Below are positions 201 through 49,062 of a DNA stretch of 57,250 nucleotides, piece by piece. A program made the position numbers and the translations under genes. The stretch is from IMG/VR virus record IMGVR_UViG_3300037488_003672; one strand, written 5' to 3'. This DNA is from an uncultured virus (IMG/VR IMGVR_UViG_3300037488_003672). Its lineage: Duplodnaviria; Heunggongvirae; Uroviricota; Caudoviricetes. Position 1 is the first letter of the stretch. Each line of letters begins with the position of its first letter. Under the pieces are notes generated by a model that saw only the letters and a program-made list of their open reading frames with translations, had not been told where the DNA came from and made no database searches.

Positions 201-755
201 TTGATCAATATGATCTCAAATCAGATCTTATTTTTAGATTTTGATGGAGTTTTCGTACCGAATTTGTTTCGTACAAAAAACAAAAACATCAATACTGCGA
301 ACATTTCTTCCGAAGAGTTCGCCAAAACGGTTCAAATCTATGATCAAATCTCCCGTTTCTTTTTGAACTTCTTTGATTTTCTGCAAGGACTCTTCCCGAA
401 CGCATACACACTCATTCTGACGGGAAGAAAAGAATCTCTTTTAGGGGATTTTACAAGAGAATTGTTAAGAAAAGCTAACATCGTCGATAAAATTAATGAA
501 ATCGCTTTTTATCCCGAAGATAAATCCTATCAGCAAGATGTTTATTTTGATTGGAAAACTTGCTACATTCGAGGTATAATGGATAAGTTTAAAAAAGCGA
601 AAGCAATCGTGCTTGACGATGACTTAGCCTTATTAAAAGAACTTCGTCATAATACAACGCTTCCTCAGCGTCAATTAAAATTTTTATTCTTTGAAGTCAG
701 TGAAATCCCAACTTATACATACTTTTGGGTTGAATCATATTCTTTTTTCACGTGA
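201..755 (+). CDS. HAD-superfamily phosphatase-like protein
   Basis: Motif I LDFDGV, motif II LTGR, motif IV VLDDD; start may be ATG 210. Confidence 0.75.
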   Translation: MINMISNQILFLDFDGVFVPNLFRTKNKNINTANISSEEFAKTVQIYDQISRFFLNFFDFLQGLFPNAYTLILTGRKESLLGDFTRELLRKANIVDKINEIAFYPEDKSYQQDVYFDWKTCYIRGIMDKFKKAKAIVLDDDLALLKELRHNTTLPQRQLKFLFFEVSEIPTYTYFWVESYSFFT

Positions 756-802
756 TTTTTTATGGTTTTATTATTTTCACATTTGAACAATACATTTAAA
801 TA
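747..802 (+). promoter_or_regulatory. Palindrome + TATA module
   Basis: CACGTG 749, TTTAAATA 795 (46 nt), ATG 824. Confidence 0.65.
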
Positions 803-823
803 GATCTAATACATTAAAATAAT

Positions 824-1075
824 ATGGATACACATATTGTGATGAAGGATACTGAAAAACTAAAAGTAAAAGTGATTTTTTCTAATGAATTTACGACTAT
901 TTTAAAAGTTGAAAAATTAAATATTAAATTTTTAGCTTCAAAAAGAGATATAAATCAAAATATTGTCGAAATTTCCGTTTGGCTCTTCAATAATTGGGTT
1001 CCTCTTCAAATCTCAATCAATCGAACTTTAGATGATCTGAGTACAGTTATTCAAATGTTTATTGATAATTTTTAA
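824..1075 (+). CDS. Hypothetical protein
   Basis: 83-aa ORF preceded by TATA box. Confidence 0.65.
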   Translation: MDTHIVMKDTEKLKVKVIFSNEFTTILKVEKLNIKFLASKRDINQNIVEISVWLFNNWVPLQISINRTLDDLSTVIQMFIDNF

Positions 1076-1087
1076 GGAAGTGATCAA

Positions 1088-1594
1088 ATGAGTCAAATTA
1101 ATGTTGCTTCTCGATCTGAGATGATCGACAAAGCTTTAAACGAAGAGAAAACGCTTCTCGAAATCAATCGAGAATTACGTTCTCTCAATATGAAACCCCT
1201 TTCCAAAAAGCAATTTACACAAAAGCTCTCAACAATCAAAAAGAAGGGGAATTATGAAATCGAATATACTCAAAAATTTGCGGGAAAATTTGATAATAAA
1301 ACCTTTTCTCTAAAAAAATATGGCGTTAAAAACTGCGTCAAAGAATGGTTCGAGTTGAAATTGTTGATTGATAAATGTTATCGCATCTCTGAAATGATGG
1401 ATGCTCGAATTAAACCCATTCCACTTCTGAAAACACAATTACACACTGCAACTGTGTCTCAAAACGATCACGCAATCCTTTTAATTCAAACTGAAATTGA
1501 TCGCTTAATTCGAGAATATGATGCGTTAAGTTCGCAACTCAACGCTTTAACTGATAATTATGCAATTAATGAATTAATTGAACCGAGCAATTAA
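1088..1594 (+). CDS. Hypothetical protein
   Basis: 168-aa ORF co-directional with upstream gene, purine-rich sequence before ATG. Confidence 0.7.
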   Translation: MSQINVASRSEMIDKALNEEKTLLEINRELRSLNMKPLSKKQFTQKLSTIKKKGNYEIEYTQKFAGKFDNKTFSLKKYGVKNCVKEWFELKLLIDKCYRISEMMDARIKPIPLLKTQLHTATVSQNDHAILLIQTEIDRLIREYDALSSQLNALTDNYAINELIEPSN

Positions 1595-1648
1595 AAATAT
1601 GAACAAATCAACATCAAAAAAACTTCCTTCACTCGATTTTTTCTTTCT

Positions 1649-1870
1649 TTATGGTAATGAATGAACAAACGAAAGAAGCGTTTTAAATTGCTTTGGCTTG
1701 GCTTCTCTTTTACAATTGGAACAAACACTTTCTTCATCGCAACAGTTAACACAAGTAAAATTGTTGCATTTCTTGCAGATCGAACATTCATAATATCCTT
1801 CTTCTTGATCATCGTTGATTTCAATGTGTTTTTTGCACACAATACACACAATTTCAATCTCGTCAGTCAT
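1649..1870 (-). CDS. Small Cys-rich zinc-finger protein with C-terminal PIP-like motif
   Basis: Four CxxC pairs (CIVC, CSIC, CVNC, CSNC); ends QFKTLLSFV; ATG 1870 preferred over TTG 1894. Confidence 0.65.
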   Translation of the reverse strand: MTDEIEIVCIVCKKHIEINDDQEEGYYECSICKKCNNFTCVNCCDEESVCSNCKREAKPKQFKTLLSFVHSLP

Positions 1871-1952
1871 AGTCTCGATCCTCAAAGCTTTCAATCATTA
1901 TAAATTTCACGTGGTAAATGTTTTTAAATATTTAAAACAATTAAATATTAAT

Positions 1953-3575
1953 ATGAAGAAATCAACTTCAAAAAAACCGAATACAGATTATTATAATCTT
2001 GATGAACTTATTGCAGACGAAATGAAAGCTCACTTGGAATATAAAGTCTATATCCCATTAAATGCTCATTTTAAGGAAATATCTAATCAAGAATTGGAAC
2101 ATCATGCGTTTTTAACGAGCCTTAACCAAACATCAATAAATGTGGATAGTCAAGTATCTCAAATTTCCGAACTAACTCCCGAACGATTAGATGAATTAAT
2201 CAGAGACGAATTGAAAGCGTCTAAGGAATATGCTGATATGGCGAAAGAAAATAACGGGTTCCTTAAACTTGCTACTCAAGAAAAAGAACATTACGATTTT
2301 CTTTGTTCCATTAAAAAAACCCTTTTCACGATTGCTGATACAACGAATTATGGAACTCTTTCCGTTTCCTTTGGGGATAAACAACAAATTGTCAATCTCA
2401 GTAAAATGACCGAACCCTATTTATTTATTTCTAAAGATGGCGTGAAGAAAGGAGAAAAGAAAGCTAAAACGGAAGAAAAGAAATCAGCCAAGACGAAAAA
2501 AGAAGAAGACGAAGAAGAAGAGCGATATTGGACAAATTACATGAACTTACCAAAAGATTCAGCCTCTGAACAATCTGATTATTTTGATCTTGAGAATTAT
2601 AAAGGTTCTTGTTTCAGTGCAAAATCAATTTGGGATTTATTCAATCAAATTATATCAAAATCTGATAAATTATATCCATTTGAAGCACGATATCTCACAA
2701 ATTGGTTTTTTGATAGTTACCATTGGCTTGAATTAAATCCCCACAATACCAATTTAGATTTATGGAGAACAGAATTAATCAAAAGACTTAATATAAAGGG
2801 AGACTTTAAATCTGAATTAAGCGAGATATTATACATTAATCGTAGAATTATTGCTGAGATATTTGAAAGCGAGGTATTATCTATTAATATTAACGAAGCT
2901 TTAAGCGTTAAAAATTTGGGTTTTAATTCCTATCTCTATCTCGATATTGGTATTTTATTAAGTATCATGGATAATATGGCAAAAACAAACGCATTTAGAA
3001 AAACCCAAAATCTCCGACCATTAGATCCCATCGACTTAAATGAATTAACTGGCTTCTTAGATGCTTATAATATTCAATATGATGCAGAGAAACTCAATCA
3101 AGCACAAGAACTCAATCAAGCACAAGAAGCGAAAGATGAAGATGAAGAATCAGAAGATCCTATTACCTCTGATGAATATGGTTTTTGTGTAGTTGGGACT
3201 ATTCATGAAAAATTATGTATTGGTGATGAAATCGAATTAACCGATGACGCTAAAGAAAATTACAACAATAAAAAATATAATGGAAAATGGATTATTACTG
3301 ATTTTACCAATGATCCGAAAGCCAATGGTTATGATTCAAGTCTCTCTCCGCAATATTTAATTAGCTGTATGGGATTAAACATTTCCATTTACGAGTATGA
3401 ATTTGACATTGTAAAACATTTTTCAAAAAAAATCAAAAAAACTACAAAAAAAGCGAAAGATGGACTTTTTCATAAAACTTCTAAACTTCTAAAGGGAGGA
3501 CTGAAAAGAGGCGAACTAAAGCGAATTTCTCAACTAAAAGGATCAAAAATAACCATGATCAAGCGAGATTCATGA
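1953..3575 (+). CDS. Multidomain protein with N-terminal ferritin/rubrerythrin-like repeat
   Basis: Two copies of DE-x2-A-x3-Y...F-x4-QE-x2-H; ATG 1953 follows a TATA box at about 1924. Confidence 0.6.
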   Translation: MKKSTSKKPNTDYYNLDELIADEMKAHLEYKVYIPLNAHFKEISNQELEHHAFLTSLNQTSINVDSQVSQISELTPERLDELIRDELKASKEYADMAKENNGFLKLATQEKEHYDFLCSIKKTLFTIADTTNYGTLSVSFGDKQQIVNLSKMTEPYLFISKDGVKKGEKKAKTEEKKSAKTKKEEDEEEERYWTNYMNLPKDSASEQSDYFDLENYKGSCFSAKSIWDLFNQIISKSDKLYPFEARYLTNWFFDSYHWLELNPHNTNLDLWRTELIKRLNIKGDFKSELSEILYINRRIIAEIFESEVLSININEALSVKNLGFNSYLYLDIGILLSIMDNMAKTNAFRKTQNLRPLDPIDLNELTGFLDAYNIQYDAEKLNQAQELNQAQEAKDEDEESEDPITSDEYGFCVVGTIHEKLCIGDEIELTDDAKENYNNKKYNGKWIITDFTNDPKANGYDSSLSPQYLISCMGLNISIYEYEFDIVKHFSKKIKKTTKKAKDGLFHKTSKLLKGGLKRGELKRISQLKGSKITMIKRDS

Positions 3576-3745
3576 ATTTAAAAATATCGATCAAATAAAT
3601 TCAGAAATGGTTCGTATTGGATAGAATATTTTTTCATCTCTTCTTCATACTCTTTTTTTTCTCAATTCTTCAAACTTCTATATTCATAGAATCGAGCAAA
3701 ATATCGGTTTTTTCGATTTTTTACTTTTACCAAGATAAAATCACA

Positions 3746-3817
3746 ATCGAAAAGCAAAGTATAAGATAATTTCAGTTAATATAAAGAAAAATATGAAAAA
3801 AGAATAATTCACGTGAA
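3746..3817. repeat. Dispersed non-coding repeat, copy 1
   Basis: About 72 bp aligning with 47391-47463 and ending in TTCACGTGAA; weaker similarity extends about 100 bp upstream. Confidence 0.75.
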
Positions 3818-4656: not shown

Positions 4657-4714
4657 TTCACGTGAAAATTTATTAATAAGCATAAAATAAGTTTAAAACA
4701 AATATATTTAAATA
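4657..4714 (+). promoter_or_regulatory. Palindrome + TATA module
   Basis: CACGTG 4659, TTTAAATA 4707 (48 nt). Confidence 0.65.
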
Positions 4715-4747: not shown

Positions 4748-5164
4748 ATGGTAATTATTATGGAAAGTCTAACCAAAAATGAAGAATTAAATCAAGATTT
4801 TGAATTAAATCAAGATTTTTACGATCAAGAATTGAAAATCGTTGAAAACGAATCAATTGAAATAAATGAAGGATATAAGAAAGTCTTCGAATTTCCATTA
4901 ACTTTATGCAAAATTTCTCAAATGGATACGATTATATTAAGATCTCCGTGTTCTATATGTATTGATTATAAAAACAAACTATATCGAACGGATTTTCTTC
5001 ACATATATATAACCGATTCTCCAAAGCTTAAAATCACTGTGGGAAGCAATAAAAAGGTATTTCCGTTATTGCTAACTTCTCTGGATAAAAAATATACTTG
5101 TTGCACATCATTTATAATTATAAATGATTATGTTTTTGAACCGAACCATTCTCTCATCATTTAG
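4748..5164 (+). CDS. Hypothetical protein
   Basis: 138-aa ORF containing an 18-bp duplication (ELNQDF x2). Confidence 0.6.
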   Translation: MVIIMESLTKNEELNQDFELNQDFYDQELKIVENESIEINEGYKKVFEFPLTLCKISQMDTIILRSPCSICIDYKNKLYRTDFLHIYITDSPKLKITVGSNKKVFPLLLTSLDKKYTCCTSFIIINDYVFEPNHSLII

Positions 5165-5193: not shown

Positions 5194-5251
5194 TTCACGT
5201 GAAATACAATATTTTAATTAACCACAAAAACCAAACGATAATATTTATATA
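5194..5251 (+). promoter_or_regulatory. Palindrome + TATA module
   Basis: CACGTG 5196, TTTATATA 5244 (48 nt). Confidence 0.65.
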
Positions 5252-5556: not shown

Positions 5557-5971
5557 TTAACCAAATGATTAACTATAAATAAATTAATATATCGATCTTT
5601 TTTTTCTACGTTTTTGTAAATTTACTTAACTTCTAAACTAACAGAAAAACATCGATTTTACCGATGAAAATTAATCATAAAATAATATTCACGTGAATGA
5701 ATAAATTAAACCAATTATTGTCTGAAAAACAAACAAAAAACATCGTTTGAAAATAATCAAATTAAACGAAAAAATCTTAATTATTCTTAAGATAAATAAC
5801 AAAAAACTCATCTTATTATGAGTTATATAATAATATAATGATTAAACTCTCGCCAGAAAAAACGTAAAAAATCAACAATAACTCAATAAAAACACAGAAA
5901 AATCAACTCAATTCGAGAAAAAACCGATCTCTCTTCTCTTAATCAAAAACAGCGTAAAAACGAGTTTAAAA

Positions 5972-6973: not shown

Positions 6974-7030
6974 TATTTAAAACTTTCGTTTCATTAGGCA
7001 TAATAATAATCAACTATAATTTCACGTGAA
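6974..7030 (-). promoter_or_regulatory. Palindrome + TATA module (minus strand)
   Basis: CACGTG 7023-7028; minus-strand TTTAAATA begins 6981 (47 nt). Confidence 0.6.
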
Positions 7031-9217: not shown

Positions 9218-9266
9218 AATAATAAATGTTTATTTTTCAATCATTTAATTGTTTTCACGTGATATT

Positions 9267-9944
9267 TCATTGATAACAAAGAAAGGGAGATAATTTTCGT
9301 TTAATAAATTTTATTACTTTCTCGTCAAAAATAGTCTGAATATGCGTTGCATGTCCCTTGATCGCCAAACACTGACCATCTCGTAAATGAAATAATTTCT
9401 TTCCATAAAGAAAATGAGAATAGGGAACAATTAAATCGTCAATTCCATGAATCATTGAAACTTTCTTTCCAATTATTTTTCGATCATCCTCTAAATTAAG
9501 GCTTAATTGTTCAAATATCTCTAAATCTTCTTTAGTTATTCGCTTTCTCGTATCAAATATCTTGCGAATATATTCATAATAAAATCCTAATATTACTCCC
9601 ATATCCTTAAAAACAGTATTGGATGTAGGCGATGAAATGGTGATTGTTTTTATCACATATTTATTTGGCGTTAAGCATAACGCATTAAATCCGCCGATTG
9701 AAGATCCAATTAGAATACATTTCTTTTTTCTGCGATTAATAATACGAAGCCAATCTGATTGAGTTTCTTGTAATGATAAACAGTTCCCATTTTTTTTATT
9801 TGATCCTCGGGAATCAATTGCAATAATGGGATTAAGAACTGAACCAAACGAATCTTTAAACCACTTCAACAGATATTCTTTATTACTTCCATACCCATGT
9901 AATAAACAAATTGTCGGACAAGAATCATTAACTTTGAATATCAT
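9267..9944 (-). CDS. Alpha/beta hydrolase
   Basis: LHGYGS, nucleophile elbow GSSIGG, HGxDDxIVP, late His. Confidence 0.85.
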   Translation of the reverse strand: MIFKVNDSCPTICLLHGYGSNKEYLLKWFKDSFGSVLNPIIAIDSRGSNKKNGNCLSLQETQSDWLRIINRRKKKCILIGSSIGGFNALCLTPNKYVIKTITISSPTSNTVFKDMGVILGFYYEYIRKIFDTRKRITKEDLEIFEQLSLNLEDDRKIIGKKVSMIHGIDDLIVPYSHFLYGKKLFHLRDGQCLAIKGHATHIQTIFDEKVIKFIKRKLSPFLCYQ

Positions 9945-10280: not shown

Positions 10281-10415
10281 TCCAATATTGCTTTACTTTC
10301 ATTTAAAATTTCAGTTAAAATCTTCACATTCATGTTCCTTCACGTGAATTATTCTTTTTTTCAATATTTCAAATTCGAAAAATAGAAAAACCCACATTAG
10401 TTTAATATTCTTATT

Positions 10416-11567: not shown

Positions 11568-11647
11568 ACTAATCCTAAGTTCTTTGACAATTTAAATCTT
11601 TTCAAATACTTAATAAATAAGATAATAAAAAATCACGTGAAAAAAGA

Positions 11648-13897: not shown

Positions 13898-13986
13898 TTT
13901 TTATCACTTTTTATATGTAAAGCCAACTATTAATACTTATCTCATTTTGATAACAATAAAAAATATAAAATTCACGTGAAAATTAA

Positions 13987-14402: not shown

Positions 14403-15512
14403 TTAGCTCTTTTTCTCATCCGAAAAATTAAAATTAAATGGTTTCTTTTCGTGCATTTTGGCTTGGAGAATATCGGAGTTCGCATGAAGATATATTTCAG
14501 TTGTAGTGATTTTTGTATGTCCTAATAACTCCTTTATCATAAAAATATCAATATTCTCTCGAACCAATTTACTCGCAAAACTATGGCGTAATTTGTGGGG
14601 AGTTAAATGTTTTTCAATTTGAAAAAGTTCTCGATATTTTTTAACTCTGCGTTGAATATCTCTCGTTGAAAGCCTATCGCCATTTCGATTATTAAATAAA
14701 CTCCGATTCTTCAAAATTTGTTCTCTTCTTTCTTCAAATTCAGCATAATCTTTATTCTTATGCTTTAATTGGTCTATTTTATTGGATAATTCGGAGATTA
14801 AATGATCTAATCGTTTTTTTCGTTCTTCAAGAAATTTCTCATAAATTCGCATAAATAAAACATCATGGGTTGGAATATAGGATGTTCGCAATTTACTTCC
14901 TTTGCCTAAAATACGAACTTCTCCCGTTTTTATATCAATCGCATCAATATTTAACTCCGATTGTTCACTGACTCTCAATCCCGTTGATAATGGTAATAAC
15001 ATAATTAAGACTTCTTGGTAATAATCAACTCGATCATTATCAATTTTAGACGTTAAATCACGTACTAAATTCATTATTTCCGTATCGGTTAAGAATACCA
15101 CATTCTTTGTGGTTATCGGAGGCATTCTGATATTTTGTGTGGGATTTTCAGTTAAGATTTTTTCTTCAATTAAAAATTCATAATACGAGCTTAAAACCGA
15201 AAAATAATTTATGATTGATTTGGGTTCATAAGGTAAATCCCCATTCTTTTCCTTCACGTGAAAAACCAAATCTTTTCGTGGCATAGTTTGCATTTCATTT
15301 CGGATTAATCGTAATTGAATTTTCGTGAGGGATTTTACGTCAGTTTGAAATTTTGTGTTTGCAATTATTTTCCAAAAGTGAAATAGAACAAAATGGTATT
15401 TCTCTTTAGTAATATGCTTATTACTTTTCGTTGAAGAATCAATTTCCAATAAAAAACTTTTCATTAATTCGTCATCTGCATTATTCGCAACCATCTTCGC
15501 ATCTAAACTCAT
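14403..15512 (-). CDS. Tyrosine recombinase/integrase, XerC/XerD(XerA)-like
   Basis: STGLRVSE (R), GKGSKLR (K), TPHKLRHSFAS (HxxR), LLGH, TEIY (catalytic Y). Confidence 0.95.
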   Translation of the reverse strand: MSLDAKMVANNADDELMKSFLLEIDSSTKSNKHITKEKYHFVLFHFWKIIANTKFQTDVKSLTKIQLRLIRNEMQTMPRKDLVFHVKEKNGDLPYEPKSIINYFSVLSSYYEFLIEEKILTENPTQNIRMPPITTKNVVFLTDTEIMNLVRDLTSKIDNDRVDYYQEVLIMLLPLSTGLRVSEQSELNIDAIDIKTGEVRILGKGSKLRTSYIPTHDVLFMRIYEKFLEERKKRLDHLISELSNKIDQLKHKNKDYAEFEERREQILKNRSLFNNRNGDRLSTRDIQRRVKKYRELFQIEKHLTPHKLRHSFASKLVRENIDIFMIKELLGHTKITTTEIYLHANSDILQAKMHEKKPFNFNFSDEKKS

Positions 15513-16443: not shown

Positions 16444-16499
16444 TTCACGTGAATATTTCTTTTTTTATTTCTTTTCATTTTAATCCTAACCTTTAATAA
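16444..16499 (+). promoter_or_regulatory. Palindrome + TATA module
   Basis: CACGTG 16446, TTTAATAA 16492 (46 nt), ATG 16521. Confidence 0.6.
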
Positions 16500-16991: not shown

Positions 16992-17791
16992 AACTTTAAT
17001 TTTTTCACTAATTGCTTTTTTACTTCTTCTAAATCGTAAAATTTTTTTGCCACTTCTAACTTATTTAAAATAACATGCTCAAACGAGAGATCATAATCAT
17101 TTCTATTGCTATATTGTCCCAATAATTTCGATATTTCGTTGAGAATTTGTCGGATTGGATGAAACTTAGGCAATTTATCAAAATTTCCATGCGACAAATA
17201 TAATTGTTTGTCATGTATATAAGGATAAAAAACGGGAAATGTTGTTAATGGTAATTTTTGTCTATATATCATAGCAATACTCGGATCTTCTGCAATATGT
17301 GTTTCTTTATTCTTTTCTATCTCGCTTCTTCCTTCTAATTTTTGCATTCTCTCTTCCAATATTTTTTTTAAAGCTTCTCTAACTTGTATCTCAAAGGTTT
17401 CTTCTGCAAGTTCTCTCTCTCTCTTTTCCTTATCAATAATTTCTCTCTCAATTTCTCTCTGTTTTCTTTCTTCTTCTCTCTGTTTTCTTTCTTCTTCTTT
17501 CTTCTTTCTATATGCTATGCGTAAATCAACAATCAATTTCTCTTTTTCGGCAATGACTTCTTCTCTCTCTTTCTTAACTCTCTCTGCAAAGACTTCTTCT
17601 CGTCTTTTCTTATACAATAGTGCAATTTCTTCATCTAATTCTTGTTTCGATTGATTATTTTCAATTGTCCATAATTTTCCTATTTCTTCTCTCCTCTCTT
17701 TGTTTCTTGCTCGAAATAACTTCCTTAGAGATTTTCTAATTTGTTGATCCTTTTTTACATCATTTAAACTATTTTGGTCTATTAAGCTCAA
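16988..17791 (-). CDS. Coiled-coil, highly charged protein
   Basis: E/K/R-rich helix; 21-bp duplication EERKQRE x2. Confidence 0.7.
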   Translation of the reverse strand: MSLIDQNSLNDVKKDQQIRKSLRKLFRARNKERREEIGKLWTIENNQSKQELDEEIALLYKKRREEVFAERVKKEREEVIAEKEKLIVDLRIAYRKKKEEERKQREEERKQREIEREIIDKEKRERELAEETFEIQVREALKKILEERMQKLEGRSEIEKNKETHIAEDPSIAMIYRQKLPLTTFPVFYPYIHDKQLYLSHGNFDKLPKFHPIRQILNEISKLLGQYSNRNDYDLSFEHVILNKLEVAKKFYDLEEVKKQLVKKLKF

Positions 17792-17807
17792 TTTTTATGA
17801 TCATCAA

Positions 17808-18449: not shown

Positions 18450-18546
18450 TATTTAAATATAGCGATAAAATCAAACAAAAAAATAAACAAACCATAATTC
18501 ACGTGAATCAAGATATTCTCGAATTAAAAATATATGTATTTATAAT
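18450..18546. promoter_or_regulatory. Divergent promoter region with central palindrome
   Basis: CACGTG 18500-18505; minus-strand TTTAAATA begins 18457 (48 nt); plus-strand TTTATAAT 18539. Confidence 0.6.
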
Positions 18547-20048: not shown

Positions 20049-20078
20049 AAGATTAAGAAGATTAAGAAGATTAAGAAG
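20049..20078. repeat. Intergenic 9-bp tandem repeat (AAGATTAAG x3)
   Basis: Direct reading. Confidence 0.85.
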
Positions 20079-20132
20079 AAAAAGATTTATTATTGTAAAA
20101 AGTTAAATCTCACATGATAAAGGAAAAATTCG

Positions 20133-21624: not shown

Positions 21625-21683
21625 TTCACGTGAATCTTATTTTGATATTTTTTCGAACCATAATTCCAATAAATTTTTATAAT
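21625..21683 (+). promoter_or_regulatory. Palindrome + TATA module
   Basis: CACGTG 21627, TTTTATAA 21675 (48 nt). Confidence 0.6.
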
Positions 21684-22089: not shown

Positions 22090-23001
22090 CTATCCATTCA
22101 CTAAGGATTTATATAATTCTTTGTTAATCACATTCTTTCGAAATTTAAGTAAATCAAAAACCACATTTTCAACTAACGTAAAGATCTCACTATCAAATTC
22201 TTCTCTTCGATCTGTAACATCCATTTCATACGTTTTCATAATGGGTTCGATTTTTTTTTCCAAGAATTTCGCAAGAGTTCGTTCTTCTGGGAATAATGTA
22301 TTCATTAACTCCTTATCGTTAATGGTTAAAAATGGAATAACTAATCGCTTATTCTCTTCAATTAATTGACGTTGATAATCAACAGCATTGGCAATTGAAT
22401 TGTCATAGGTTTTCAGCCCTTCAATTTTTTTTCCTATTTTACTTTCAATTGCTTCTTTGGAAGACCACACATTATTATCGATCTCTCTCAATATTTTATC
22501 TTGAATCCCATCTTCCATATCTACCTTATACTTAAATTCAATTATATCGTAATAATCTTGAAAGTAATCTTTAAGAAAATCATAAAAGCCTAAAATAAAT
22601 CCTTCCAAAAGCAATGTTTCACCTTTTACAAAATACCTTTCATCGATGATCTTCTTCAATTCTAAAAGATCGGTTGGAGTAATATCTTGAATCTTAGCAA
22701 TAAAATCGTCTAAGACTTTACGAACTTGCTCTTGATTTAACGTCTTTAAAGATTCAGTCCCCTTCGTTTTTGATGCTTTAGTTTCTTTTTCTCTCGCAGA
22801 TACTTCTTCAAAATATTTGTCCTTTACTAATTTTGCATAAAACCCTTCTAACTTTTTGATGAGACTCTTTGAATAAACTTTAAAGATCCGTCTTAATTGT
22901 TCATTTCCTTTATCTGAAAATGCTAATGAATACATAACCATCGCCATTTCATTATTTGATTTAGAAGGTTTTGTATTTCCCATACCAAATTTTAGAGACA
23001 T
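22090..23001 (-). CDS. Hypothetical helical protein
   Basis: 303-aa ORF. Confidence 0.75.
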   Translation of the reverse strand: MSLKFGMGNTKPSKSNNEMAMVMYSLAFSDKGNEQLRRIFKVYSKSLIKKLEGFYAKLVKDKYFEEVSAREKETKASKTKGTESLKTLNQEQVRKVLDDFIAKIQDITPTDLLELKKIIDERYFVKGETLLLEGFILGFYDFLKDYFQDYYDIIEFKYKVDMEDGIQDKILREIDNNVWSSKEAIESKIGKKIEGLKTYDNSIANAVDYQRQLIEENKRLVIPFLTINDKELMNTLFPEERTLAKFLEKKIEPIMKTYEMDVTDRREEFDSEIFTLVENVVFDLLKFRKNVINKELYKSLVNG

Positions 23002-23093
23002 TATTTTTCCACGTGAAATATTTATATTTTAAAATATATAATATTAATCAAACTAATAAATTTTTAGAGAAATCTTCTTAAAGTTGAAAATAT

Positions 23094-27644: not shown

Positions 27645-27702
27645 TTCACGTGAATTACCATCTACTCATATTTTATGACCTTTACAACAGTATATTTATA
27701 AG
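27645..27702 (+). promoter_or_regulatory. Palindrome + TATA module
   Basis: CACGTG 27647, TTTATAAG 27695 (48 nt), ATG 27724. Confidence 0.65.
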
Positions 27703-28017: not shown

Positions 28018-28075
28018 TTCACGTGAAAATAATAAACATTATTTCTTTCATAAATAAAACCAATAAATTTATATA
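28018..28075 (+). promoter_or_regulatory. Palindrome + TATA module
   Basis: CACGTG 28020, TTTATATA 28068 (48 nt). Confidence 0.65.
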
Positions 28076-28927: not shown

Positions 28928-28985
28928 TTCACGTGAAAATTATCTTCCGTATTTTTATTATATTCGAAACCCATATATTTATATA
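28928..28985 (+). promoter_or_regulatory. Palindrome + TATA module
   Basis: CACGTG 28930, TTTATATA 28978 (48 nt). Confidence 0.65.
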
Positions 28986-29641: not shown

Positions 29642-30328
29642 TTAATAATTTAACTCTGCTAATCTGAAATTACTAAAGTCAGCAAAAGTTTTTACGATTT
29701 CAAAGGCAAGAACATATCTCCCCATATACGATCCGACCTTCAAAATTGTCCCAGAGCCAGAGAAACAATCTAAAACAATATCGTCTGGGTTTGAGAAGAT
29801 AAAGACCAACATTTCCACTAATTCTTTGGGAAGCTTATTTGGCGTTTTTATCAACCCTTTCCAATATTCACGTGGAATCTCAAATATTTCCATTTTTTCA
29901 TCATACTCAGTGGTCATAATATCTTCGCAGTACCAAATTGGTTTATTAAACGTAAATTTAGTTTTATGCTTTGAGCAAAAAAAGATCTTATAGTGAGACG
30001 AAACAAATTTACGCTTCGTGAATAGACCAAAATTATATCTCCAAATGATCTCATTCTGCAAATAAAAATTATTCTCATTAATCGCATTTAATATATCTCG
30101 CTGATTACTCCAACTGGAGACAATAATTAATGTTCCATGCTTTGTCAATTTTGAATAGGCTTTTTGAATCCATTGATTTGAAAATAACGCATAATCTGCT
30201 AATGCTATCTCATGATACCCTTCCATGACATTCACACTATCACGATTATAGTTTAAAGTCTCTGGCTTTCCATTCTCTATCGCAAAAGGACAATCGGTTA
30301 TGATCGTATCAACGCTTTCGTTAGGCAA
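29642..30328 (-). CDS. N4C/N6A DNA methyltransferase (beta class), 5'-truncated
   Basis: TDCPF (motif IV) precedes LDCFSGSG (motif I); native N-terminus displaced to 31168-31401. Confidence 0.8.
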   Translation of the reverse strand: MPNESVDTIITDCPFAIENGKPETLNYNRDSVNVMEGYHEIALADYALFSNQWIQKAYSKLTKHGTLIIVSSWSNQRDILNAINENNFYLQNEIIWRYNFGLFTKRKFVSSHYKIFFCSKHKTKFTFNKPIWYCEDIMTTEYDEKMEIFEIPREYWKGLIKTPNKLPKELVEMLVFIFSNPDDIVLDCFSGSGTILKVGSYMGRYVLAFEIVKTFADFSNFRLAELNY

Positions 30329-30340: not shown

Positions 30341-30396
30341 TCATTCATATTATCGCAGAATCGAACTTCCCCATAATTACCTTTAATTGTTTTCAT
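30341..30396. repeat. 56-bp direct repeat B (partner 31107-31162)
   Basis: Exact second copy of the first 56 nt of the 30383-31162 gene. Confidence 0.9.
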
Positions 30397-31162
30397 TTTG
30401 TTTCTTTCCTTGGATAAATTGATGTAATTTCAATTGGGTTTTATACGTTTTATGTTTGCCAATCCCATGAGCGATTCGTTTCTCAATATCGGGTGCATAT
30501 TCTTCCATGATTTCATAGCCGAGCCACGGGATTCCTAATTCTTCACACACTTCCGCAGTAGTACCAGAACCGAGAAAGGGATCAATAACTGATTTCATTT
30601 GTGATTGAAATATAACTTTTTTCCAAAATTGATATGATTTAGGACAAGGATGAATAAACATATCTTTTTTACAAATTCCTTGATGTAATAATCCAGTTAT
30701 TATATTAAAAGGAAATATTTTTTGTTTATGTTTATTCCAATATGGATCTTGTCCATACATTAAAAATATTTCTGCTTTTGTTAAATAACATAAAGATGAT
30801 AATCCTTGTCCATCAGATTTATTATGAATTAAATAATCTTTAGGATTTGTGTGTTCAATCCATGATTTAAGATTGGGATGTCCCGTTGAAATAATTTGTA
30901 AAGATGAAACTCTTTGTAATTCATTAAACCATTTCATATTCCAATCCATATATTCTTCATTTGTTTTATTATCTTCATATTCTATTTTATCTTGGATTGG
31001 ATGATCATTTATCTTTTGAGAATTTCCTTTCAGCTTAACATTATAGGGTGGATCTGTTAAGCATAAATCCCAACTCTGGTCTTTCAGTGATGGAAGTCCA
31101 TATGTTTCATTCATATTATCGCAGAATCGAACTTCCCCATAATTACCTTTAATTGTTTTCAT
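30383..31162 (-). CDS. N4C/N6A DNA methyltransferase (beta class)
   Basis: TDPPY, HPCPK, IDPFLGSG; C-terminal QLKLHQFI. Confidence 0.9.
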   Translation of the reverse strand: MKTIKGNYGEVRFCDNMNETYGLPSLKDQSWDLCLTDPPYNVKLKGNSQKINDHPIQDKIEYEDNKTNEEYMDWNMKWFNELQRVSSLQIISTGHPNLKSWIEHTNPKDYLIHNKSDGQGLSSLCYLTKAEIFLMYGQDPYWNKHKQKIFPFNIITGLLHQGICKKDMFIHPCPKSYQFWKKVIFQSQMKSVIDPFLGSGTTAEVCEELGIPWLGYEIMEEYAPDIEKRIAHGIGKHKTYKTQLKLHQFIQGKKQNENN

Positions 31163-31401: not shown

Positions 31402-31513
31402 CCATTTAATTATTGCTTTTTTTTGATTGAATCAATATATTTACCTAAATTCACGTGAATACTTATTTTCTAAAAAAACTGAAGATAATAAACAACAAAA
31501 TAGGAGTTATTAA

Positions 31514-32374
31514 ATGATCAATTTGCCTACTAAAAATATGCAAGGTTCCTATAATAATCATCCATTTAATTTAATCAACGAAGATATTTTTACCTATTTA
31601 CACGCCAATACCCAAATTCTCAATAAATATCGGCTTATTATTATCGATCCGCCTTATTCTTTAACTCAAAATATATGGGATCAAACCATATTCGATTTAA
31701 CAAAATTATGGGATTATTTACCCAATATTTTACTTGACGATGGATCAATTTTGATCTTTTCTCAACAGCCATTTAGCACAGATGTAATTCTTTCTAAGCG
31801 AGATCTTTATCGATATGAGATAATTTGGTTGAAAGAAAAAGGAACTCGCTTTTTTGAAGCTGAAAAACGTCTCCTCCCAGCTCACGAAAATATCCAACTT
31901 TTTAGCAAAAAATACCCTCATCTCTTCAATCCGATTAAATTTCAAGGAAAACCCTATAAAAAATTGCGAAAAAAGGAAAATAGCAGTTCAAACTATCAAA
32001 GTGATTCTAAAGACGAAATCTTAACAACTAACAATGGTGATCGTTATCCTTTGTCATACTTATATTTTCCACGTGATAATGCGAATATCGGAATCCATCC
32101 AACTCAAAAACCCGTTGATTTATTACGTTTTTTAATTAAGACGTATTCTAATGAGAATGATTCCATTTTGGATATATGTAGTGGAAGTGGGAGTACTATG
32201 ATTGCATCTCTTATGGAAAAAAGAAATATAGATTCTATTGAAAAAGATAAAACGATATATGAAAAAGCATGTAATAGACTTTCAACATATTTAATTGATG
32301 GAAAAGACCATTTATCAAAAAAAGATAAAACCAAACAATCAAGTAACTTAGATCACATTTTTTTATCTAAATAA
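31514..32374 (+). CDS. N4C/N6A DNA methyltransferase (beta class)
   Basis: IDPPY, HPTQKP, LDICSGSG. Confidence 0.92.
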   Translation: MINLPTKNMQGSYNNHPFNLINEDIFTYLHANTQILNKYRLIIIDPPYSLTQNIWDQTIFDLTKLWDYLPNILLDDGSILIFSQQPFSTDVILSKRDLYRYEIIWLKEKGTRFFEAEKRLLPAHENIQLFSKKYPHLFNPIKFQGKPYKKLRKKENSSSNYQSDSKDEILTTNNGDRYPLSYLYFPRDNANIGIHPTQKPVDLLRFLIKTYSNENDSILDICSGSGSTMIASLMEKRNIDSIEKDKTIYEKACNRLSTYLIDGKDHLSKKDKTKQSSNLDHIFLSK

Positions 32375-36014: not shown

Positions 36015-36084
36015 GTTTTTTTTACTTTATTTTTCCCCCCTTAATCATAAAAACATTTATAATTTCACGTGATATAATTAAATC

Positions 36085-38386: not shown

Positions 38387-38481
38387 AACGATCTATCTTA
38401 TTTATTTCTCTTAGGCATAAATATATTGTGAAAACCGAAAAACAATTAAAAAAAGAAAATTCACGTGAATAAAGAATAAGA

Positions 38482-39827: not shown

Positions 39828-40160
39828 ATGACCACATTTATTTTTCAACAAAATCAATTTCGAGTAAATTCATTACAATTAAGTAGAAAAACACTTTTAA
39901 AGGCATTAGCATCAATCTTTCACCAATTTCCAAAGCAAGATGAATTTACCATAAAAGAAATTCATTATGCTTCCTCAGATAAAACCATTCGAGCCATTAT
40001 TTTTATCTTTGAACAATTTGAATATCTGGAAGTATGCGAGAGCAGAGAGATTATTCCAAAGAAATATCGCTTTAAATCAAACGATCTATCTGCTATGATG
40101 AATGATCTAAAACAAATCGGCATCATTGCAACTAAAACCAATAAAATCCAGTGGGATTAA
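39828..40160 (+). CDS. Hypothetical protein, possible winged helix
   Basis: FTIKEI...helix...KKYRF pattern. Confidence 0.5.
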   Translation: MTTFIFQQNQFRVNSLQLSRKTLLKALASIFHQFPKQDEFTIKEIHYASSDKTIRAIIFIFEQFEYLEVCESREIIPKKYRFKSNDLSAMMNDLKQIGIIATKTNKIQWD

Positions 40161-40225
40161 AAAATAATTCACAAATTAATTTTTATCACGTGAGGTTTAA
40201 TAATTATTCCAACTAATATTCAAAT

Positions 40226-42825: not shown

Positions 42826-42899
42826 ATCACGTGAAAATCTCTTATTCCACATCTTTTGAAAATATCAAGTTATATGTTCTTAAAACCATTCTTTGTATT

Positions 42900-44750: not shown

Positions 44751-44808
44751 TTCACGTGAATATTTTAAATTAGATTGTTTTAATCCATCAATCAAAAGAG
44801 TTATTAAT
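44751..44808 (+). promoter_or_regulatory. Palindrome + TATA-like module
   Basis: CACGTG 44753, TTATTAAT 44801 (48 nt), ATG 44829. Confidence 0.55.
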
Positions 44809-44828
44809 ATTTACGCAATATTTTAATT

Positions 44829-45245: not shown

Positions 45246-45250
45246 TCAAA

Positions 45251-45415: not shown

Positions 45416-45528
45416 TTTTAAATGAAAAAAATTATTGTATTAATTGTTGCGAATATAGCTTAACTGAATATTGTGAATTTTGTGGATTGAATCTTAGGGT
45501 ATCTCAAAAAATAGAAAGGATTGAATAA
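45412..45528 (+). CDS. Zinc-ribbon microprotein (38 aa, not in track)
   Basis: MILNEKNYCINCC...YCEFCG...*; ATGA overlap upstream, 2 nt to the next ATG. Confidence 0.5.
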   Translation: MILNEKNYCINCCEYSLTEYCEFCGLNLRVSQKIERIE

Positions 45529-45530
45529 TA

Positions 45531-45893: not shown

Positions 45894-45895
45894 AT

Positions 45896-45952
45896 CTCAC
45901 GTGATACTTATTTTTTACATTTTATTGAAGAATAAAACCATACTTTTATATA
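45896..45952 (+). promoter_or_regulatory. Palindrome + TATA module
   Basis: CACGTG 45898, TTTATATA 45945 (47 nt), ATG 45974. Confidence 0.65.
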
Positions 45953-45973
45953 GTTTCAATACAAAGAAAAATT

Positions 45974-46288
45974 ATGGCTCAAGTTAATCGAAGTCAATCT
46001 GAAATTTCTTCGGATATTGTGTATATCACTTTAGAAGAATTATTCTGGAGTCTATATCGTGAAGATATGGATATTGCTGAGTTAAGAGAAAAGATTGTGG
46101 ATGTTTTTTCTCAAGATTTAATGGAACTAATGGATGTTTCGGTTCAATTTTTTGTTGATGAGTTTAAAAATCGAAAAAATTCATCAAAAGAAAATGATGA
46201 CAAATACGTAAAAGACACTATCACAAAATTATCAAAAGCAATCTGTGATACAAACAATAAATTAATCAATGAATCTCTTTTCGAGTAA
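45974..46288 (+). CDS. Hypothetical protein
   Basis: 104-aa ORF with own promoter. Confidence 0.65.
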   Translation: MAQVNRSQSEISSDIVYITLEELFWSLYREDMDIAELREKIVDVFSQDLMELMDVSVQFFVDEFKNRKNSSKENDDKYVKDTITKLSKAICDTNNKLINESLFE

Positions 46289-46382
46289 ATTTTTTAATTC
46301 CCTTCTTTTATTCTTTTCTTCTTCTTCTCATATCGCTTTTTAATTTCTTTATTTTCATTTTTCTTCTTTCTATTATTCAACT

Positions 46383-46441
46383 CTCACGTGAATTATTCTT
46401 ATTTTATTTTATCCATTCATGAAACGAAACATTTTTATACT
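46383..46441 (+). promoter_or_regulatory. Palindrome + TATA module
   Basis: CACGTG 46385, TTTTATAC 46433 (48 nt). Confidence 0.6.
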
Positions 46442-46471
46442 CTCACGAACTACAATCAATTACTGTAATTT

Positions 46472-47251
46472 TTGGTGAGTTTAATGGTTAAAAATATAGA
46501 AGAAATTGAATTGGAGTTTTTTCGAAAATTCCTAAAAGAAAATGCTGGATCTGTGTCCAAACAATATTCGGGTTGCGAAGAAACAGTTTGGAATGAAATG
46601 AATCAAAAATTGGTTAAATCATATCCAATTGAATTTAATTTATATAAAACCTTTCGATTTTTTGAATATCAACTTAACGATCCGAATGGAATTTTGAGCA
46701 AAACCTTTGTCTATCGTCTCTATTCCACAATGGATCAGAGAAATATAGATGAACCTTCTTGTTATGCCATCTCCAGAGATTTAATTTCGCTTGAAACCTA
46801 CCTTGGAATAGTCCGAGAAGGCGAATATGGTTTAATTGAAGAAATAGAATCACTAAAATATATCATTATGGATGTGAATGTATTCATGGAAGAAATGATC
46901 TTTGAATTGAATCGAGATAAAACGCTTGATCCAGATTATATCGTTTTTTACCATTACGATCCAGCGATAAAAGGCGATTATTACGCTGAATCTTACGATC
47001 AAGTTTATTTTATTGGGAGTTATAAAAAAGCCATGAAAATCTATGAAAAAAACGCTCAGATTAGACGAGGATGCGGAACTGTTTGCTATTCCTATTCTTA
47101 TCCAGTTCCATATTTACAATTATCTCGACAATATATAATTGGAGAAAAGTTAATCATTCATGCTGAACGTGAAAAAACCGAAGAAACCGAATTTGAACTG
47201 TCATTGGAAAACGATGACGATGAAATTTGCGAAGAAAATTATCCAGATTAA
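46472..47251 (+). CDS. Hypothetical protein
   Basis: 259-aa ORF; start may be ATG 46484. Confidence 0.7.
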   Translation: MVSLMVKNIEEIELEFFRKFLKENAGSVSKQYSGCEETVWNEMNQKLVKSYPIEFNLYKTFRFFEYQLNDPNGILSKTFVYRLYSTMDQRNIDEPSCYAISRDLISLETYLGIVREGEYGLIEEIESLKYIIMDVNVFMEEMIFELNRDKTLDPDYIVFYHYDPAIKGDYYAESYDQVYFIGSYKKAMKIYEKNAQIRRGCGTVCYSYSYPVPYLQLSRQYIIGEKLIIHAEREKTEETEFELSLENDDDEICEENYPD

Positions 47252-47390
47252 TTTTTTAATTTTTTAGAAAATAAAGATCACCTTCCCTTCAATCCATTTT
47301 TTTACTCAATTTTAACTCTCTGTACCTACTCAAAACATAAGCAAAAACTCTCTTTTTTTGATTTTTTCAAATAAACTGGGGAAAACGAAG

Positions 47391-47463
47391 ATCGAAACAC
47401 AAAGTATGCGAAATTTTCAGTTAATTTAAAGGAAAAAAATCAAAAAAGAACAATTCACGTGAA
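47391..47463. repeat. Dispersed non-coding repeat, copy 2
   Basis: Aligns with 3746-3817. Confidence 0.75.
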
Positions 47464-47511
47464 AATAATATTAAATATTAATTATTTGCCTTTTAATAAT
47501 GTTTTTATAGT
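47454..47511 (+). promoter_or_regulatory. Palindrome + TATA module
   Basis: CACGTG 47456, TTTATAGT 47504 (48 nt). Confidence 0.6.
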
Positions 47512-47529
47512 ATCTATATCATAAATCTT

Positions 47530-49002
47530 TTGGTGAAAAAGATTTCAACTCAAAAAAATTCAACTCAAAGAATTATTTGCGGGGATAATTTAATTATTCT
47601 CAAAGAGCTTGCTGATAAAAGTGTCGATTTGTGCTATATCGATCCTCCGTTTTTCACTAATAAGAATTACGAAGTAATTTGGAAAGACGGAGCTGAAATA
47701 CGTCAATTTAATGACCGATGGATAACGAGCGAAAAGGATTCAGACAAGAATCCTAAAAGGAGTTCCAAAGATATTAACGTCTATTTAGAATTTATGGAAC
47801 CAAGAGTTAAAGAAATTTATCGAATCTTGAAAGATACGGGTTCGTTCTATTTGCACTGCGATTATCACGCAGATGCGTATTTGCGTATTTTATGCGATAA
47901 AATATTTGATAAAGAACCGATGAATCGAATTTGTTGGAAGAGAACAAATGCAAAAGGCAATGCAACAAAAGCCTTTGGCGTTAATCATGATGTAATTCTC
48001 ATTTATACCAAATCAACTAAATATACTTTCAATATCCAAAAAGTTCAATCTGCGGATCTAAGTGGACAATACAAAAAAGTGGATAAAATTGGAAAATTTC
48101 GATCAATTACAATTATTAAAGCGAACGATTATGTTAATGTGAGCAAAGGCGAGAGTCGATATTTTCCAAGCGAAGATAAAACAGTTCAATTAGACAAAGA
48201 TCATGGTTGGGTTTGGACACAAGACAAACTTAATGCTTTTGTAAAAGACGGAGGAACTTTCGAATGGTCGTCTGGAGGGTTACCAAATTATAAAAAATAT
48301 TTAGACGATGGAGTTCCATGTGACGATGTATGGGATGGATTATATTTACATCCGTCATCAAAAGAACGCTTGGGTTACCCAACCCAAAAGCCAGAATCTC
48401 TATTGGAAAGAATCATAAAAACAAGTTCCAATGAAGGCGATCTGGTTTTGGATGGATTTTGCGGATGTGGTACTACATTAGCAACTTGTAAAAAACTAAA
48501 AAGGCAATATATCGGAATCGATGTTTCTCCAACAGCTTGTCGGTTGATTGCGAAACGACTTGGTCTCCCTATTCAAGATATTGAAGGTCTCCCTATTAAT
48601 TCGGAAGAAATTGGGAACTTGGATGGAAATGAATTTCAGAATTTTATCATTAGGGAATTTGGGGGATTTTCTGGAAAAAGGGGAGCTGATGGAGGGATTG
48701 ATGGTAATTTAGGCGATTTATTAATTCAAGTCAAAAAATTTAAAGCGGGAAGAATGCACTTGGATACCTTCTCTGGAATGCTATTACGAGAGAAAAAAAC
48801 CGAAGGGGTTTTCATTGCATTAGAGTTTTCGAAAGATTTTCGAGCTGAAGTTGCACGTCTCAAATCTGAGAACGGGATTATCATTCATTGGTTTGACGTA
48901 CAAGACATTATTGATAAAAAACACTATGAATTAGTGAATGAACATATACCAAAACAAGGATTAGAAAAATACAATACCATCAAATTTAATCCCAATAAAT
49001 AA
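47530..49002 (+). CDS. N6A/N4C DNA methyltransferase fused to a C-terminal Mrr-like (PD-D/ExK) domain
   Basis: IDPPF, YPTQKP, LDGFCGCG; then EFQNFI, GADGGIDG, IQVK. Confidence 0.9.
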   Translation: MVKKISTQKNSTQRIICGDNLIILKELADKSVDLCYIDPPFFTNKNYEVIWKDGAEIRQFNDRWITSEKDSDKNPKRSSKDINVYLEFMEPRVKEIYRILKDTGSFYLHCDYHADAYLRILCDKIFDKEPMNRICWKRTNAKGNATKAFGVNHDVILIYTKSTKYTFNIQKVQSADLSGQYKKVDKIGKFRSITIIKANDYVNVSKGESRYFPSEDKTVQLDKDHGWVWTQDKLNAFVKDGGTFEWSSGGLPNYKKYLDDGVPCDDVWDGLYLHPSSKERLGYPTQKPESLLERIIKTSSNEGDLVLDGFCGCGTTLATCKKLKRQYIGIDVSPTACRLIAKRLGLPIQDIEGLPINSEEIGNLDGNEFQNFIIREFGGFSGKRGADGGIDGNLGDLLIQVKKFKAGRMHLDTFSGMLLREKKTEGVFIALEFSKDFRAEVARLKSENGIIIHWFDVQDIIDKKHYELVNEHIPKQGLEKYNTIKFNPNK

Positions 49003-49005
49003 TGA

Positions 49006-49062
49006 TTCACGTGAATAACCATATTTCTATTTTTTTATTGCTTTTCCATAAACATTTAATAT
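49006..49062 (+). promoter_or_regulatory. Palindrome + TATA module
   Basis: CACGTG 49008, TTTAATAT 49055 (47 nt), ATG 49086. Confidence 0.6.

Follow-up and report, generated by a model that had tools for sequence, protein, structure and literature searches.

A directional palindrome linked to promoters of archaeal-type geometry in an uncultured mobile element

Results

The locus and its genes

We analysed a 57,250-nt stretch of DNA (the window) from an uncultured virus, IMG/VR record IMGVR_UViG_3300037488_003672, in which the palindrome CACGTG often stands at a fixed distance upstream of TATA-like boxes. The window has a G+C content of 29%, is ~87% coding and carries ~78 open reading frames (ORFs) on both strands, with no tRNA and no Rfam family. 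Nearly all of its proteins are orphans; those that can be recognised are five DNA methyltransferases, a tyrosine integrase, an AAA_5 ATPase and an SF2 helicase (Table 1). Among named sequences, the helicase is closest to those of lipothrixviruses, and Infirmifilum helicases share 32% identity with it. Judging from this kinship and from the promoter geometry described below, the window is probably a portion of an archaeal virus or plasmid that has not been cultured. A contig of 67 kb carries a helicase with 99% identity, and one of 119 kb carries an integrase identical to that of the window. The whole element is at least 67 kb long, and the window covers only some of it. DNA of the element was found in six sequencing runs, all of them sediment or freshwater-sediment metagenomes, and no RNA run was among those listed.

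The palindrome is enriched and lies between genes

CACGTG occurs 39 times in the window, as compared with 1.94 on average and never more than 6 in 100 dinucleotide-preserving shuffles. The full conserved word is the 10-base palindrome TTCACGTGAA, of which 22 of the 39 sites are exact copies, and TCACGTGA is found 33 times against 0.41 expected. The bases next to the hexamer are T at −1 (36/39) and −2 (31/39) and A at +6 (36/39) and +7 (30/39), beyond which the flanks are A/T without preference. Despite the coding fraction of 87%, thirty sites are not wholly within an ORF (p = 3e-19), and only three are deep in genes, two of which lack the full flanks. The sites are dispersed over the whole 57 kb at about one per 1.5 kb and are not clustered.

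The palindrome is present in 27 of the 36 promoter-bearing gaps: 15/18 plus-strand tandem gaps of at least 60 nt, 4/7 minus-strand tandem gaps and 8/11 divergent gaps of at least 90 nt. Convergent gaps contain it in 3 of 14 cases, all three being large, and some gaps without a perfect palindrome contain weaker CAYRTG variants. The initial annotation had proposed that the element defines a promoter class; the link to promoters holds, but with this coverage the sites do not single out a special subclass.

Other G+C-rich palindromes are nearly absent from the window. CCGG, CGCG, GCGC and GGCC have no copies (16-31 expected for each), CTAG has one (56 expected), and the 23 other hexameric palindromes with four G/C have 0.13 copies on average versus 3.13 for non-palindromic hexamers of the same composition. 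This purge points to heavy restriction pressure on the element, and against such a near-total loss the retained CACGTG stands out as positively selected. Alternatively, the word might be an epigenetic mark, the target of one of the five methyltransferases encoded in the window, which, once methylated, either is read at promoters, in the way that CcrM sites are read by GcrA in Caulobacter, or is simply protected and so tolerated, in agreement with its being kept while all other G+C-rich palindromes were purged. However, tolerance predicts ~2-3 copies, not 39, and would not put copies 47 nt from TATA boxes (see below); moreover, the NCBIfam matches of the methyltransferases are all below the cut-off, with a specificity assignable to none of the five. 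We regard an epigenetic role as very improbable.

The palindrome is held at a fixed distance from the TATA box

The initial annotation had listed 16 palindrome-TATA pairs with a fixed spacing. All of them were confirmed in the sequence, at 46-48 nt, and one further site, 50783 in the minus orientation, brings the number of conforming sites to 17 of the 39 (Table 1). At these sites the motif-to-TATA distance has a standard deviation (SD) of 0.8 nt, whereas the distance from TATA to the start codon ranges from 27 to 133 nt (27-51 nt in all but one case) and that from the upstream stop codon to the motif from −7 to 204 nt, indicating that the palindrome is tied to the TATA box and not to the neighbouring gene ends. 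Two of the 17 boxes are weak (44753, TTATTAAT; 38462, TTTATGCC). The gap from the 10-mer to TATA is 38-40 bp; the centre of the palindrome lies ~48 bp upstream of the TATA centre and at roughly −75 relative to the predicted transcription start.

The spacing was evaluated over the 78 oriented flanks of the 39 sites, at offsets 8-150. Eight of the 14 exact TTTAWATA matches sit at offsets 46-48, where 0.29 would be expected (binomial p = 1e-10), as do 12 of the 74 matches at 7/8 or better (1.55 expected; p = 5e-8). With 500 sets of 39 random non-coding anchors, the same offsets held at most 2 exact or 7 (7/8) matches and none of the 500 sets reached the observed numbers, while any 3-nt bin held at most 3 exact or 10 (7/8) matches. 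The distance distribution is thus not flat but has a sharp excess at 46-48, and chance TATA matches in AT-rich DNA are ruled out as its cause. A recently duplicated promoter cassette was also rejected, since the spacers differ save for the AT/T-rich pattern described below and there is a single real repeat pair (3810 and 47456).

A fixed distance alone would also be expected if the bound factor positioned host histones or other nucleoid proteins in a way that leaves the TATA box open, the second suggestion of the initial annotation. Neither a 30-bp nor a 60-bp logic fits the 40-bp spacer, and we consider such chromatin phasing highly unlikely.

The other sites have spacings of 9, 15, 39-45, 51-57, 67 and 79 nt, lie between TATA and the start codon, are among the three deep in genes, or have no assignable promoter. 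Relative to the helical phase of the main class, spacings of 57, 57 and 67 nt are in phase and those of 39-45 and 51-54 nt are off phase. The pair 117/174, already described as about one helical turn longer, is indeed spaced by 57 nt.

The linked boxes have archaeal promoter geometry

When all 78 gene starts are aligned, TATA-like boxes are most frequent 29 nt before the ATG, a leaderless geometry, and a second peak at ~41 nt is accompanied by AGGA-type ribosome sites, as for a short leader. A transcription factor B recognition element (BRE)-like AAAC before the TATA box, mentioned in the initial annotation as frequent, is found in ~10 of the 17 conforming promoters (A in 11, C in 9 and C in 10 of 17 at columns −9 to −7). 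Columns −6 to −3 are A-rich, with AAC(C) at −9 to −7 in these ~10 of 17, which might correspond to the purine-rich BRE expected directly ahead of an archaeal TATA box. By their geometry, the palindrome-linked boxes resemble genuine archaeal promoters, in which an A/T-rich 8-bp TATA box is located about 25-30 nt ahead of the transcription start.

A one-sided extension gives the site a direction

On one side of the palindrome, positions +8 to +28 form a T-rich tract that includes a fixed AT at +21/+22. In the 22 tandem-oriented sites, A is found at +21 in 18, T at +22 in 19 and the AT pair in 17 (p = 1e-10); over the 78 oriented flanks, AT occurs 26 times at +21/+22 versus 3-22 times at other offsets, although two of these 26, those of 3810 and 47456 in the minus orientation, are duplicates of a single repeat and do not count as independent. 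The AT stays at +21/+22 where the TATA box is at 43, 45 or 57, and so belongs to the palindrome, not to TATA. In divergent gaps the AT arm is directed at the promoter with the 47-48-nt spacing (7023, 18500). The palindromic site therefore has a direction. The spacers had been called unrelated in the initial annotation, which overlooks the T-rich tract and the AT, both locked to the palindrome.

The T-rich arm and the frequent location of the sites behind genes raise the possibility of a boundary element, in which a bound protein and T-runs end upstream transcription (by roadblock or oligo-T) and insulate the next unit, and the fixed spacing reflects tight packing of terminator and promoter. 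In 11 of the 13 conforming tandem cases, −7 to 39 nt separate the site from the stop codon of the preceding gene; in most of the 22 tandem cases a T-run of at least 5 immediately precedes the site or falls in the 40 nt that follow it; and site 3810 follows a gene end without a called gene downstream. The boundary reading is nevertheless weakened by the 11 of 14 convergent gene ends without a site and by the divergent gaps, most of which have a site though there is nothing to terminate, with the AT/T-rich arm facing the 47-48-nt promoter. Packing also fails to explain the small SD of the TATA distance when the stop-to-site distance varies so widely, and we judge a boundary function to be quite unlikely. 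An RNA hairpin terminator was rejected, as the palindrome, read from sequence only, has no loop.

Site 3810 also ends one copy of a non-coding module of ~200 nt that occurs twice (3600-3815 and 47260-47461; 78% column identity), each copy ending at CACGTG and the two having no common ORF. On the minus strand of both copies, a TATA-like box (TTTATATT and TTTAAATT, respectively) lies 30-31 nt after the palindrome, and the modules may therefore be a pair of small RNA genes.

Relatives and similar sites elsewhere

A metagenome scan with a helicase alignment returned 495 relatives, and among the best 80 of these the only close one was L020, a 3.1-kb locus with a 48%-identical helicase. On either side of its helicase gene, at 990-1054 and 2930-3022, CATGTG lies 35 nt and CACATG ~50 nt ahead of TATA-like boxes; these words may be degenerate counterparts of the palindrome. 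Helicase relatives at 42-64% identity were seen as proteins only. Two helicase relatives, P0003 and P0005, are ~985 aa long and carry intein/homing-endonuclease Pfam domains, from which they appear to be intein-bearing versions of the helicase. In IMG/VR, no relatives were found with the helicase (as a single protein or as an 11-sequence alignment), the 902-aa ORF or the AAA ATPase.

The pattern TTCACGTGAA-N38-42-TTTAWATA matched 19 loci in IMG/VR, each with a single site, which is consistent with chance. The same kind of scan of genome contigs gave at least 120 loci, almost all of them single matches in bacteria, and the CACGTG-rich loci among the matches listed were bacterial parS clusters. 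Six of these, on AT-rich contigs of bacterial metagenome-assembled genomes (MAGs) (L113, L125, L127, L144, L151 and L154), contain 4-7 copies of TGTTTCACGTGAAACA in 0.4-0.6 kb and are ordinary parS arrays. Three archaeal MAGs have 2-3 copies of TTCACGTGAA each. In 401 genomes of one DPANN-type phylum (that of a Woesearchaeota MAG), 125 have a match to TTCACGTGAA, with a maximum of 6 per genome, like the reversed-word control; this tally includes the unpublished G399 (2 sites), and the result is the same without it.

These matches bear on whether the sites serve partition or condensation, as copies of a parS-like centromere that are bound by a ParB-type protein and lie near promoters only secondarily. 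TTCACGTGAA is the central 10 bp of bacterial parS in the six arrays above and in the available portions of the ParB literature, and the papers that contain the word are, as far as their accessible text goes, largely ParB/parS work. However, the outer parS bases are present in 0 of the 39 sites (GTTTCACGTGAAAC: 0), and the 16-bp consensus TGTTNCACGTGNAACA has no match. The sites recur every ~1.5 kb instead of forming a few clustered copies by parAB or the origin, as parS does, and are locked to TATA boxes, and none of the 76 ORFs scanned in the window gave a ParBc match at E ≤ 0.01. We attach very little probability to a partition role.

A candidate regulator

In the profile scans of the window, the sole trace of a DNA-binding domain was a sub-threshold Cdc6_C winged-helix match in ORF 39828-40160. 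A 135-aa ORF (50745-51152) was the only one whose nearest named Atlas clusters were helix-turn-helix or winged helix-turn-helix families (scores 0.92), and we list it as a candidate regulator, as a lead only. HMMER searches of this ORF against 1.84 billion representatives returned only itself, its single-sequence fold had a predicted local distance difference test score (pLDDT) of 46 and was unusable, and sequence searches of the PDB with three ORFs gave nothing below E = 0.2.

Other sequence features

The coordinates of the sites and genes are collected in Table 1. In addition, perfect short tandem repeats are found at 57124-57250, 3091-3128, 4784-4819 and 20049-20079; the largest of them, in the last ORF, has 6.0 copies of a 21-nt unit at 100% identity. 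A 460-nt stretch without a convincing ORF (17348-17807) is rich in CT repeats (21-nt and 36-nt arrays).

Table 1 Sites and genes of the window. Promoters and TATA boxes are predicted; offsets are from the start of CACGTG, in the orientation given.
Span	Strand	Feature	CACGTG	AT at +21/+22	TATA-like box and offset (nt)	Start codon	Pair in initial annotation
747..802	+	Composite promoter; TTCACGTGA-type site	749-754, overlapping stop of ORF 210-755	yes	TTTAAATA +46	ATG 824	749/795
4657..4714	+	Composite promoter, divergent gap	4659		TTTAAATA +48	ATG 4748 (41 nt past TATA)	4659/4707
5194..5251	+	Composite promoter	5196	yes	TTTATATA +48	next called ATG 133 nt past TATA	5196/5244
6974..7030	-	Composite promoter, divergent gap	7023-7028	yes	TTTAAATA +47	ATG 6934	7028/6981
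16444..16499	+	Composite promoter	16446, 11 nt past upstream stop	yes	TTTAATAA +46	ATG 16521 (29 nt)	16446/16492
18450..18507	-	Composite promoter, divergent gap	18500-18505	yes	TTTAAATA +48	ATG 18428 (29 nt)	18505/18457
21625..21682	+	Composite promoter	21627		TTTTTATA/TTTTATAA +47/48	ATG 21716	21627/21675
27645..27702	+	Composite promoter	27647	yes	TTTATAAG +48	ATG 27724 (29 nt)	27647/27695
28018..28075	+	Composite promoter	28020	yes	TTTATATA +48	ATG 28108 (40 nt, AAGGA ahead)	28020/28068
28928..28985	+	Composite promoter	28930	yes	TTTATATA +48	ATG 29019 (41 nt, AGGA ahead)	28930/28978
38414..38469	-	Composite promoter	38462-38467	yes	TTTATGCC +46 (weak)	ATG 38386	38467/38421
44751..44808	+	Composite promoter after helicase gene	44753, 14 nt past stop	yes	TTATTAAT +48 (weak)	ATG 44829	44753/44801
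45896..45953	+	Composite promoter	45898, 4 nt past stop	yes	TTTATATA +47/48	ATG 45974 (29 nt)	45898/45945
46383..46440	+	Composite promoter	46385	yes	TTTTTATA +47		46385/46433
47454..47510	+	Composite promoter, 490-aa DNA methyltransferase gene	47456	yes	TTTTTATA +46/47	TTG 47530	47456/47504
49006..49062	+	Composite promoter, Dam-like methyltransferase gene	49008, 5 nt past stop	yes	TTAATATA +47/48	ATG 49086	49008/49055
50734..50790	-	Composite promoter	50783-50788, in 3' end of ORF 50745-51152	yes	TTTTTATG +46/47	ATG 50703	absent
115..181	+	TATA one turn farther	117		TTTAAATA +57	ATG 210	117/174
1906..1930	+	Proximal class	1908		TTTAAATA 15 nt downstream	in-frame ATG 1953, 30 nt past TATA
40185..40203	+	Proximal class	40187		TTTAATAA +9	ATG 40226, 30 nt past TATA
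36054..36073	+	Operator-like position	36066, between TATA and ATG		TTTATAAT -12	ATG 36085
23008..23026	-	Operator-like position, gene 22090-23001	23010		TATAAATA just upstream	ATG 14 nt after motif start
	+	Same site in plus orientation	23010		6/8 box of gene 23094, 51 nt ahead of which the site lies
11575..11641	-	Site	11634	yes, in both orientations	TTTAAATT +43 (minus)	ATG 11567 (29 nt)
13907..13980	-	Site	13973	yes	TTTACATA +57	ATG 13897
42826..42876	+	Site ahead of helicase gene	42828		GTTATATG +41 (6/8)	ATG 42900
50093..50147	+	Site in 3' end of Dam-like gene	50095	yes	TTTAATAA +45	ATG 50161
51170..51330		Site, divergent gap	51243		TTTAAATA +67 (minus) and +79 (plus)	ATG 51152, 29 nt on (minus); ATG 51352, 30 nt on (plus)
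52884..52955	-	Site	52948	yes	TATA-like boxes +43 and +57	ATG 52869
56090..56153	+	Site, divergent gap	56092	yes	TTTACCTA +54 (6/8)	ATG 56176
10339..10348		Site, divergent gap	10341		TTTAAATG +39 (minus)	ATG 27 nt on
3808..3817		Site, convergent gap, end of repeated non-coding module	3810		TTTATATT +30 (minus)
5688..5697		Site, 467-nt convergent gap; promoter: none assigned	5690
9254..9263		Site	9256, 5 nt past stop of ORF 9267-9944		no clear TATA	ATG 9217, 38 nt on
31450..31459		Site, divergent gap between two methyltransferase-region genes	31452		none at 7/8 or better
55426..55522		Two sites in one 325-nt gap; promoter: none assigned	55428, 55515
15255..15260		Site deep in integrase gene	15255
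29869..29874		Site deep in methyltransferase gene, without AA flank	29869
32070..32075		Site deep in methyltransferase gene, without TT..AA flanks	32070
29642-30328(-), 30383-31162(-), 31514-32374(+), 47530-49002(+), 49086-50120(+)		DNA methyltransferase genes; four N6_N4 type, one Dam-like; three adjacent
50745..51152	-	135-aa ORFan, candidate regulator; winged-helix-like sequence

Discussion

The promoter-linked directional element described here is real and strongly non-random, and we found no account of such an archaeal element in the literature searched, where no paper joins CACGTG with archaeal viruses and promoters, or with archaea, a TATA box and a palindrome. As to its function, the reading that we favour, at about even odds, is that TTCACGTGAA is recognised by a dimeric regulator which works in a stereospecific manner on a BRE/TATA promoter of the archaeal kind. 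One sequence-specific and probably homodimeric DNA-binding protein, encoded by the element or by its host, would recognise TTCACGTGAA and, once bound, would exert shared control over the majority of the promoters of this mobile element, which is AT-rich and of archaeal type. The standard module would consist of the palindrome, 13 nt, the AT with its T-rich tract, the BRE-like AAAC, TTTAWATA at 46-48 nt after the start of the palindrome, and the start codon. The bound protein, or a complex that it nucleates, would touch the TBP/TFB/RNA polymerase assembly stereospecifically; a tolerance of ±1 bp and the one-sided AT contact suggest such a contact with the pre-initiation complex, not loose spreading. 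At the distal sites the protein would most likely help or license initiation, while copies that abut TATA or lie between TATA and the start codon might be ordinary operators. Because the palindrome is also found in these classical operator positions, one general regulator with position-dependent effects fits better than a pure distal activator. More tentatively, and with some doubt on our part, an archaeal element may route about three quarters of its promoters through one directional upstream element, with the protein spanning four and a half helical turns to reach the pre-initiation complex.

A global silencer or repressor would make a different use of the same sites, the palindromes nucleating a protein that spreads or slides to the promoters and keeps the element quiet. 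KorB acts in this way at the OB operators of the IncP plasmid RK2, where a short palindrome is scattered at set positions by many promoters under a single global regulator, and archaeal viral repressors of the SvtR/AvtR type oligomerise along DNA. The window has one site per transcription unit throughout, some copies occupy classical repressor positions, and the 10-mer is the core of the site of the ParB family, parS. According to the available text of PMC5569661, repressors make up the majority of the known archaeal viral regulators, and AvtR covers ~100 nt in protection. Nevertheless, a spreading protein needs neither a TATA spacing held to ±1 bp nor a one-sided AT contact, and the Pfam scan found no ParB-like domain in the window. 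We consider silencing unlikely.

Among archaeal activators, Ptr2, LysM and Ss-LrpB act from a site a few bp from BRE whose position is highly constrained, at least in the text available for PMC2995911, and Ptr2 and TFB-RF1 recruit TBP or TFB in the corresponding parts of PMC5569661 and PMC11705074. The likeness to Ptr2, LysM, Ss-LrpB and TFB-RF1 would lie in a presumed action on TBP/TFB recruitment, as far as these sources go (PMC2995911, PMC5569661, PMC11705074). In contrast to the Ptr2/Lrp-type sites, the 17 conforming sites described here are 38-40 bp from TATA; Ptr2/Lrp-type regulons are small, whereas the palindrome reaches most promoter-bearing gaps of a mobile element, and no Lrp/AsnC-family gene was detected among the window ORFs scanned with Pfam and NCBIfam. 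Sta1, a host winged-helix activator of SIRV1, is similar in that a dimeric protein acts on an archaeal viral promoter from an upstream site besides the core promoter, the sites in the accessible part of PMC1635249 being at the core promoter and ~30 bp upstream. A host-encoded factor like Sta1 is a live option here too, but the Sta1 sites in that text are imperfect AT-rich repeats (ATNT-N8-A/TNAT), unlike a perfect G+C-cored palindrome with a one-sided extension ~48 bp from TATA (PMC1635249). The initial annotation was thus right that characterised archaeal activators generally bind nearer, the gap in the window exceeding the Ptr2/Lrp and Sta1 distances in these portions of PMC2995911 and PMC1635249.

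Other systems share single features with the element. KorB/OB and ParB/parS also use one palindrome at many promoters, and the 10-mer is identical to the parS core; these are bacterial systems with sigma-70 promoters, whereas the promoters here are of the BRE/TATA type and neither the outer parS bases nor a ParB domain was found. TrmBL1/Tgr acts through the TGM motif, a palindrome lying upstream of BRE/TATA or downstream of TATA, which implies opposite effects. The palindrome described here likewise occurs on either side of TATA, but TGM sites are near the core promoter, in contrast to the class at about −75, and we know of no archaeal class at that position with a 1-bp tolerance. Factors of the bHLH (basic helix-loop-helix) type that bind the eukaryotic E-box/G-box CACGTG (Myc/Max, USF, Pho4, Cbf1 and PIFs) are dimeric and have upstream promoter sites; the same hexamer, a presumed dimeric reader and the upstream placement recur here, but the resemblance is in the DNA word only, and no bHLH domain was found in any scanned window ORF. 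Finally, large DNA viruses place one short word ahead of a large share of their genes, as with the early motif of mimivirus, a genome-wide promoter word, and reportedly with a palindromic promoter motif in medusavirus. Those viruses are eukaryotic and have their own transcription machinery, whereas the word described here stands at a set distance from a TATA box of host type.

Several findings weigh against a distal archaeal regulator. The spacing of 46-48 nt is missing from 22 of the 39 sites, and the TATA boxes and transcription starts of the element were placed by geometry only. A distance of ~48 bp to TATA is beyond any archaeal activator site in the available text of PMC2995911 and PMC1635249, and the proposed contact is to that extent without precedent. 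No clear DNA-binding domain was found in the window with Pfam (76 ORFs), PHROGs (35) or NCBIfam (30). L020 is without any CACGTG, and none of 30 helicase-related loci checked for other enriched palindromes had a comparable one. As for the archaeal origin, the relatives of the integrase outside the element's own group are bacterial XerC/D-like proteins.

The module TTCACGTGAA-N13-AT ... TATA is small and sharply defined, and is therefore directly testable in vitro and usable as bait for its binder. Archaeal transcription combines a eukaryote-like core machinery with bacteria-like regulators, nearly all of which are bound at or beside the core promoter. If the proposed function is correct, archaea would gain their first distal, phase-locked upstream promoter element, one that corresponds to the systems conferring promoter specificity in phages and in giant viruses. 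It would mean either that archaea can activate or license promoters from a distance, or that an archaeal virus or plasmid marks its own promoters as a class.

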